In this document: one piece after another, positions 8,128-8,350 of the stretch | How positions within the stretch are numbered: the first letter of the stretch is position 1 | How the letters are laid out: each line of letters starts with the position of its first letter | Source of the DNA: Thermodesulfobacteriota bacterium | GTDB lineage: Bacteria > DASVDK01 | NCBI GenBank assembly: GCA_036562265.1 | Contig: DATCKS010000522.1 | Span: 1-35,673, forward strand | DNA length: 35,673 nt | Direction: 5' to 3' | The notes under the pieces: generated by a model | Told to the model about the DNA's origin: nothing | The model's input: only the letters and a program-made list of their open reading frames with translations | Databases searched by the model: none | Program-made: the position numbers and the translations under genes

Positions 8128-8129
8128 TG

Positions 8130-8145
8130 GGGCACGCCTCTTGCT
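8130..8145 (+). promoter_or_regulatory. Sigma-54 (-24/-12) promoter candidate: GGGCACG-CCTC-TTGCT
   Basis: It matches TGGCACG-N4-TTGCW at every specified position except the first T. GG is at 8131-8132 and GC at 8143-8144, with canonical 11-nt G-to-G spacing. It starts 3 nt after the priming transferase stop. The predicted +1 near 8156 precedes SD GGAGGGAGG (8161-8169) and the ATG at 8174. Confidence 0.6.
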
Positions 8146-8173
8146 GGCCACTCCCGCAGGGGAGGGAGGCAGG

Positions 8174-8350
8174 ATGCGTCGAATCGTCCGCCGTGCGAAG
8201 CGGCTGTTCAACTGGGACGTCGTCATCCGTCTCGCGCTCGTGCCCGCCGTGGGGTACGTGCTCGCCGGAGCGGCCCTCGGCGCGAGCCGGAAGGCGGCCC
8301 GCGAGGCGGTCCTGGGGGCGATGGACGCCGCTGCCTTCCTCGGCCGCTAG
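8174..8350 (+). CDS. Small (58 aa) single-pass membrane protein, hypothetical
   Basis: ATG is preceded by a strong SD, GGAGGGAGG, with a 4-nt spacer. The protein has a basic N-terminus (MRRIVRRAKR) and one hydrophobic helix (VVIRLALVPAVGYVLAGAALGA). The TTG at 8141 used in the ORF track lies inside the promoter motif. I recognise no homology. Confidence 0.45.
   Translation: MRRIVRRAKRLFNWDVVIRLALVPAVGYVLAGAALGASRKAAREAVLGAMDAAAFLGR

Follow-up and report, generated by a model that had tools for sequence, protein, structure and literature searches.

A probable sigma-54 promoter within an XrtA/PEP-CTERM-type exopolysaccharide locus of a Thermodesulfobacteriota bacterium

Positions 8130-8145 of a 35,673-nt contig from a Thermodesulfobacteriota bacterium (DATCKS010000522.1, assembly GCA_036562265.1; the whole contig is hereafter the window) very probably form a working -24/-12 promoter recognised by sigma-54 RNA polymerase. 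This element, designated P1, lies inside a long exopolysaccharide (EPS) locus, between the gene of a priming polyprenyl glycosyl-phosphotransferase and a small open reading frame (ORF), and is the first of four such sites, P1 to P4. The organism is known solely as a metagenome-assembled genome (MAG), termed G000, a 95%-complete assembly of 626 contigs, 3.27 Mb and 72.7% GC in which the window is contig C120. Genes were called from GC content at third codon positions (GC3) and codon usage, and families were assigned by Pfam and NCBIfam scans. From the features described below we infer sigma-54 binding, the start site, the acting activator and the physiological signal. The elements at and around P1 are as follows.

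6730-8127, forward strand: priming polyprenyl glycosyl-phosphotransferase (EpsB_2), end of the export/polymerisation block (TIGR03013 499.6 bits, cut-off 393; Pfam Bac_transf 235 bits)
8130-8145, forward strand: P1, predicted sigma-54 promoter (GGGCACGCCTCTTGCT; -24 element GGCAC, -12 element TTGCT)
8156 (G), forward strand: predicted transcription start, placed by geometry with C8144 taken as -12 (the GC there is invariant in 10 relatives)
8161-8169, forward strand: predicted Shine-Dalgarno sequence of the small ORF (GGAGGGAGG; a purine-rich version is kept in all relatives)
8174-8350, forward strand: ORF of 58 amino acids (aa)
8378-9526, forward strand: GT2 glycosyltransferase, 382 aa, predicted last gene of the P1-specific unit (Pfam Glycos_transf_2)

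The geometry of P1 is canonical. Its doublets, GG at 8131-8132 and GC at 8143-8144, stand exactly GG-N10-GC apart, and GGGCACGCCTCTTGCT agrees with TGGCACG-N4-TTGCW at 15 of 16 specified positions, the sole mismatch being G for the first T. The original prediction of a match at all but this T with exact spacing is thus borne out, as are all of its coordinates. The priming-transferase gene ends in TGA at 8125-8127, P1 begins 3 nt after this stop, and the next ATG lies at 8174, leaving a gap of 46 nt (8128-8173) and a predicted leader of 18 nt from 8156 to the ATG. Read 5' to 3', the order is GGTCGCGGGCGG, TGA, TG, GGGCACGCCTCTTGCT, GGCCACTCCC, GCAGGGGAGGGAGGCAGG, ATG. A weight matrix built in leave-one-out fashion without P1 gives the site 18.7 bits.

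P1 belongs to a class of sites that is strongly biased towards intergenic DNA across the genome. The pattern GGCAY-N5-TTGCW has 28 matches in G000, of which 27 are intergenic, although intergenic DNA makes up only 290 kb (9%) of the genome and a second-order Markov model of it predicts 0.8. The remaining match is coding, against 1.4 expected from codon permutation. Nearly all of the intergenic matches are within 170 nt upstream of a co-oriented gene. This bias is confined to the canonical spacing: genome-wide, half-sites spaced by N3, N4, N6 or N7 give 3-9 matches with 2-4 intergenic, and the pattern read backwards gives 4 matches with 1 intergenic. The 28 sites have unrelated flanks, and a dispersed repeat family was therefore rejected as their source.

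These sites define the organism's own sigma-54 consensus, (T)GGCAYG-N4-TTGCTC. A G follows GGCAY in 22 of the 28 and a C follows TTGCT in 21, while the T before GG is present in 11 and absent in 17. Because only 11 of 28 sites carry it, the missing first T at 8130 is no meaningful defect in this lineage. Four of the sites, together with two activator genes, cluster in the 35.7-kb window, which makes up 1.1% of the genome, and each of the four occupies one of the few gaps between genes there. Within the window itself, GGCACG-N4-TTGCW has two exact matches, or four if one mismatch is tolerated, where shuffles expect 0.89.

A 16-nt motif in a window of this length, with its first consensus T missing, could in principle be a chance match without function. 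The 27 intergenic sites against 0.8 expected, the flat wrong-spacing and reversed controls, and the perfect conservation of the motif in ten loci with a diverged spacer make this extremely improbable, in agreement with the earlier view that such a motif is unlikely to appear by chance.

The machinery for sigma-54 transcription is encoded in the same genome. A single rpoN gene is present in G000; it is complete, encodes 476 aa and has the AID, CBD and DBD domains. Absence of rpoN would, by the original prediction, have refuted it. The genome also has 21 matches to the Sigma54_activat domain, ~15-17 of them strong. Two genes for bacterial enhancer-binding proteins (bEBPs) are within the window, the second beside a kinase gene, and are candidates for the activation of P1.

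1-975, forward strand: sigma-54 enhancer-binding protein with AAA+ and HTH_8, candidate activator (Pfam Sigma54_activat 243 bits; 5' end cut by the contig end)
21963-23075, forward strand: PAS histidine kinase, partner in a candidate activator pair (domain scans)
23072-24526, forward strand: response-regulator-type sigma-54 activator (receiver-AAA+-HTH), candidate (PrsR model 414.5 bits, cut-off 502.6)

Comparison with related genomes also supports a promoter. The GTDB-based reference set has only two genomes of the phylum, G000 and G001, both of one genus; G001 is GCA_036381125.1 and carries the NCBI label 'Thermodesulfobacteriota bacterium'. It has 42 pattern matches compared with 7 for a reversed control. 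Most G000 sites have an orthologous site in G001 and P1 to P4 are all retained, with the P1 16-mer identical and 5 of the following 25 nt different. More broadly, GGCAC[GA]-N4-TTGCT precedes the small ORF in every related locus that reaches the region (ten loci), and one contig starts inside the motif. The distance from motif to ATG is 41-44 nt in nine of these loci and 58 nt in one. The sequence between the priming-transferase stop and the motif is variable, and so is its length, which ranges from 3 nt to several tens of nt as read from the alignment. Mean column identity of the P1 region is 46%; the invariant columns are GGCAC, T-N-TTGCT, the GC at the predicted +1/+2 and part of the Shine-Dalgarno sequence.

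Several observations weigh against a sigma-54 promoter at P1. The conservation rests on relatives that are 83-93% nucleotide-identical in the neighbouring gene. No sigma-54 motif is present at the P1 position in 160 distant priming-transferase loci (≤50% protein identity) of other phyla, from Acidobacteriota, Desulfobacterales, Nitrospirota, Rokubacteria and others. A search of the 260 nt upstream of P1 to P4 for shared 7-mers and perfect inverted repeats found no shared enhancer (upstream activating sequence), the shared words being merely GC-rich or codon-driven, e.g. GAGGTGATC. As P1 begins 3 nt after the preceding stop, any enhancer of P1 must sit inside coding DNA, and across 5-7 orthologues no clear synonymous-site conservation is seen in the final 136 codons of the priming-transferase gene. 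Lastly, RpoN1 of Aquincola seemed not to regulate the EPS biosynthesis genes there, while a PEP-CTERM gene was RpoN1-dependent (Xia et al. 2023, PMC9850573).

A repeat at P4, CTGCTCG-N12-CGAGCAG, was considered as an enhancer and rejected, as it is broken in G001. Since the distant loci lack the motif, the P1 arrangement is specific to this lineage and not general to XrtA-type loci. Separately, a few Rokubacteria-type loci (L047:788, L053:454, L139:684) carry GGCACGGGAGTTGCT or a similar motif ~3.3 kb upstream of the priming transferase, where transcription of the export block, and not of the transferase modules, may begin from a sigma-54 promoter.

The 'tiny ORF' behind P1 is a real gene for a conserved 58-aa, apparently single-pass membrane protein. 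It scores as coding by codon usage and has nine further homologues with 68-92% identity, giving a family of 10 members of 58-59 aa, always located between the priming glycosyltransferase and the GT2. An invariant core, FNWDVVIRLALVPAVGYVLAGAALG, is shared by all 10; it follows a basic N-terminus and resembles one transmembrane helix. Five substitutions distinguish G000 from G001 over the central 37 codons, all of them synonymous. Scans of the protein gave no Pfam or NCBIfam match. The reading of the ORF as a broken, in-frame N-terminus of the GT2 was rejected, because all relatives keep its TAG stop, its length of 58 aa and a separate start for the GT2. In one related contig (L225:386-741, Logan SRR23875549) two tandem 59-aa genes with a 4-nt overlap follow the sigma-54 motif, which may represent a duplication of the small membrane protein.

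Under the promoter reading, sigma-54 holoenzyme would bind GGCAC-N5-TTGCT as a closed complex, to be opened by an ATP-hydrolysing bEBP, the likeliest candidates being the in-locus protein encoded at 1-975 or the kinase-coupled one at 23072-24526. Transcription would then begin near G8156, producing an mRNA with the 18-nt leader and a strong Shine-Dalgarno sequence that encodes the 58-aa protein and the GT2. The original prediction described a separately regulated glycosyltransferase sub-operon. Separate regulation gains support from the sequence, but P1 is not a lone promoter, being one of four, and its private unit comprises only the small ORF and one GT2 (8174-9526). This limit is set by P2, which follows at 9530-9545 with no terminator-like structure found between the P1 unit and P2. 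Across positions 1-12000 a single terminator-like site was found, at 11625, which is fewer than in shuffles, and no sigma-70-like promoter site was found in the same interval. With no terminator-like structure between the genes, transcription from P1 probably runs on through P2, and that from the export block probably reads into P1.

This placement, inside a co-directional array with no terminator-like structure nearby and 3 nt past a stop, would also suit an insulator, in which an unactivated closed complex blocks or dampens read-through from the export operon and productive initiation is minor. Reports from Salmonella and E. coli describe sigma-54 sites within genes or between operons at which no transcript was detected, and the negative enhancer search is in keeping with such a role. 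However, in 9 of 10 relatives the motif keeps a constant spacing to a strong Shine-Dalgarno sequence and ATG, which suits a promoter and is unneeded by a roadblock, and two bEBP genes are found in the locus. A mainly insulating role is therefore unlikely, though the two roles are not exclusive.

The other three sigma-54 sites of the window are as follows.

9530-9545, forward strand: P2, predicted sigma-54 promoter (CGGCACGTTACTTGCT; motif scan hit at 9531)
27525-27540, forward strand: P3, predicted sigma-54 promoter before three GT4 genes (TTGGCATGTGCCTTGCT; motif scan hit at 27526; identical in G001)
34077-34092, reverse strand: P4, predicted sigma-54 promoter (CTGGCACACCGCTTGCT; 24.3 bits, the best of the window; conserved in G001)

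P2 is conserved in all seven related loci that reach it, with the same start-codon spacing in six. The ATG at 9559 is at ~+4 relative to P2, a near-leaderless geometry that recurs in the genome. A start codon lies 12-13 nt after the motif (+3/+4) in 7 of the 27 intergenic sigma-54 sites, or 9 when GTG is counted, with no comparable peak at other offsets. These sites include P2 and P3 and are without a Shine-Dalgarno sequence. This suggests that leaderless mRNAs driven by sigma-54 are common in this organism. At P2, a possible hairpin (GGCACG...CGTGCC) was dismissed, as it is not conserved in G001. At P4, three in-frame ATGs follow the site, and because the first (34072) is upstream of the predicted start site, the true start of the gene is probably the second or third.

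A second conserved feature overlaps P1 and bears on how its transcripts may be translated.

8138-8146 with 8154-8162, forward strand: inverted repeat or hairpin with a 9-bp stem (5' arm CTCTTGCT, over the spacer and -12 element; 3' arm GCAGGGG at +1 to +7, reaching into the Shine-Dalgarno sequence)

The sequence from +1 onward (GAGCAAGGG; GCAGGGG in the window) is complementary to CTCTTGCTC, the spacer and -12 element, in all ten orthologues. Stem positions are paired in 92% of cells compared with 49-58% for slid partners, a count that is inflated because the structure was derived from the same few, related sequences. Two stem pairs display compensatory changes (C-G to U-A and C-G to G-C), and several A-to-G changes keep U-G pairing, which applies to the sense RNA only. 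The spacer T at 8139 is invariant among orthologues, although T is rare at this position in G000 sigma-54 sites. In 5 of 7 orthologues the read-through RNA folds with z-scores between -2.5 and -3.1.

Taken by itself, this conserved repeat could mean that the region serves as an RNA hairpin for processing, stability or termination at the priming-transferase 3' end, or as a palindromic operator, with the likeness to sigma-54 sites being secondary. The inverted repeat, its compensatory pairs and the folding scores favour such a role. Nonetheless, GGCAC, the -24 element, is invariant and at the exact sigma-54 spacing even though it falls outside the core stem, and the hairpin is not shared by the 27 intergenic sites that make up the class of P1 across the genome. 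The structure also has no U-tract, and a search of 7800-9800 gave no Rfam match at E≤1. A hairpin or operator that merely resembles a sigma-54 site is thus very unlikely.

The repeat may instead act together with a sigma-54 promoter at P1. Since its 5' arm is upstream of the predicted start, the stem can form in read-through RNA only. In 9 of 10 orthologues the Shine-Dalgarno sequence and AUG are predicted to be less accessible in read-through RNA than in the sigma-54 transcript, with mean accessibilities of 0.29 and 0.43, a gap of only ~1-2 standard deviations of shuffled controls. On these models the hairpin might silence read-through transcripts, for which the evidence is suggestive and not a demonstration. 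A wider proposal, that the locus promoters are built so that translation as well as transcription depends on starting at sigma-54 promoters, is speculative and rather doubtful. At P1, CUCUUGCU would pair with the Shine-Dalgarno sequence in RNA arriving from the export operon, whereas RNA started at +1 would lack this arm and be translatable. At P2 and P3, only leaderless RNA initiated by sigma-54 would be translated efficiently. A comparable principle is known from the transposase genes of IS10 and IS50, in which fold-back inhibits the translation of read-through transcripts. The likeness concerns the hairpin only: an inverted repeat straddles the start and its 5' arm, which pairs with the ribosome-binding region, is present only in RNAs begun upstream. 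At P1, unlike in IS10/IS50, the effect is predicted and modest, the 5' arm is the -12 element itself, and the setting is an operon-internal promoter and not a mobile element.

The surrounding genes form what their families indicate to be a long, almost entirely co-directional EPS locus of the XrtA/PEP-CTERM type. Beyond the genes given above, its content is as follows.

1136-1720: Wza-like exporter
1747-3006: outer-membrane barrel
3044-4528: chain-length determinant (TIGR03007 298.2 bits, cut-off 279)
4541-5644: ATPase
5641-6654: tyrosine kinase
9559-10542, forward strand: GT2, first gene of the long biosynthetic block after P2
9559-21713: eleven biosynthetic genes (GT2s, two TagF-like transferases, a nucleotidyltransferase, an acetyltransferase, a Wzy-like protein, a flippase and one unassigned)
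24771-27505: uncharacterised protein and PDZ protein
27626-31127 (as called): three GT4 genes, behind P3
34072-31844, reverse strand: GAF-GGDEF-GAF-HD-GYP gene for a cyclic diguanylate (c-di-GMP) enzyme, behind P4

TIGR03015, TIGR03018 and TIGR03027 are the best matches for their proteins yet score under their cut-offs. Two stricter labels were rejected. The locus was not designated a full PEP-CTERM system, as exosortase was not found and G000 has a single match to the PEP-CTERM domain TIGR02595. The exosortase model PF09721 has no match in the 95%-complete, 626-contig assembly, for which absence is not proven; exosortase is either in the unassembled part of the MAG or the EPS machinery works without protein sorting. 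Similarly, the kinase and regulator were not designated PrsK and PrsR, as their scores fall under the cut-offs (TIGR02916 for PrsK, 85 bits vs. 300) and AtoS/AtoC-type models outscore the PrsK/PrsR models.

No sigma-54 motif was found in the export/polymerisation block, and the 160-nt gap before the export gene (976-1135) has no match to a sigma-54-like or sigma-70-like consensus. In the gap after the response-regulator-type activator gene are two weak sigma-54-like motifs, at 24659-24680 and 24701-24716, neither of which is convincing. One, GGCATAGCGCCTGCT, scores 11.7 bits; its spacing is canonical, but its -12 element reads CTGC. The other, GGGCATAGCTTTGCC, has a spacing one base short and lies 21 nt before an ATG (24738) with a strong Shine-Dalgarno sequence.

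Sigma-54 motifs are also found elsewhere in G000 (C22:8045, C218:6403, C263:5145, C333:602, C302:4902, C184:8792, C291:1049, C495:4450 and C441:17499). The genes behind them are clpX, hsp20, dnaK, lpxC and a gene for a GspH-type pseudopilin, with further genes for PilZ-EAL, receiver-GGDEF, Crp/Fnr regulator and PilZ proteins. Chaperone genes under sigma-54 promoters are unusual in most model bacteria.

Canonical sigma-54 promoters such as glnAp2 and pspA have TGGCAC-N5-TTGCW with an upstream bEBP enhancer. P1 resembles them in its GG-N10-GC doublets, its match to 15 of 16 consensus positions, its co-oriented placement upstream of a gene and the presence of rpoN and bEBPs. It differs in having G for the first T and in lying 3 nt after a stop, such that an enhancer would be intragenic, and none was identified.

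Among polysaccharide loci, syp of Vibrio fischeri is the closest functional analogue, while XrtA/PEP-CTERM systems are the closest by homology of machinery. The syp locus is split into sub-operons by several sigma-54 promoters; the present locus likewise has several, four in number. Described as an 18-gene polysaccharide locus, syp has sigma-54 promoters that are activated by the in-locus bEBP SypG (PMC10162802, citing Yip et al. 2005). Both are polysaccharide loci of ~18-30 genes transcribed under sigma-54 and a response-regulator-type bEBP encoded within, a dependence that is predicted in the present case. Unlike syp, the locus described here belongs to another phylum and has EpsB_2, chain-length determinant, ATPase and tyrosine kinase of the XrtA/PEP-CTERM type. 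Its export block is without a sigma-54 motif, two of its promoters abut start codons and no enhancer was recognised.

PEP-CTERM/exosortase systems also feature sigma-54 sites together with PrsK/PrsR (PMC1569441, PMC9850573), with the sites preceding PEP-CTERM protein genes (Haft et al. 2006, PMC1569441). The present locus has the same EPS gene families (TIGR03013, TIGR03007, TIGR03015, TIGR03018 and TIGR03027), an NtrC-type activator with an adjacent histidine kinase near glycosyltransferases, and -24/-12 motifs. In contrast to those systems, the sigma-54 sites here precede glycosyltransferase genes, the kinase and regulator score under the PrsK/PrsR cut-offs, exosortase was not found and only one PEP-CTERM domain is present.

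Sigma-54 control of polysaccharide loci is well known and the promoter itself is unsurprising; here it is seen in a barely sampled phylum. Together, the four promoters would place sugar-adding enzymes and a c-di-GMP module under signal-dependent, near all-or-none control. The predicted regulon of ~27 promoters extends to clpX, hsp20, dnaK, lpxC, a pseudopilin and several c-di-GMP proteins. If promoter-coupled translation were true, each glycosyltransferase module would be insulated from read-through in a gene array without terminators, and this coupling of promoter choice to translation would, if confirmed, be the part of specialist interest. For a phylum-level lineage with only two genomes in the reference set, the analysis provides a confident and testable regulatory map of an EPS locus.

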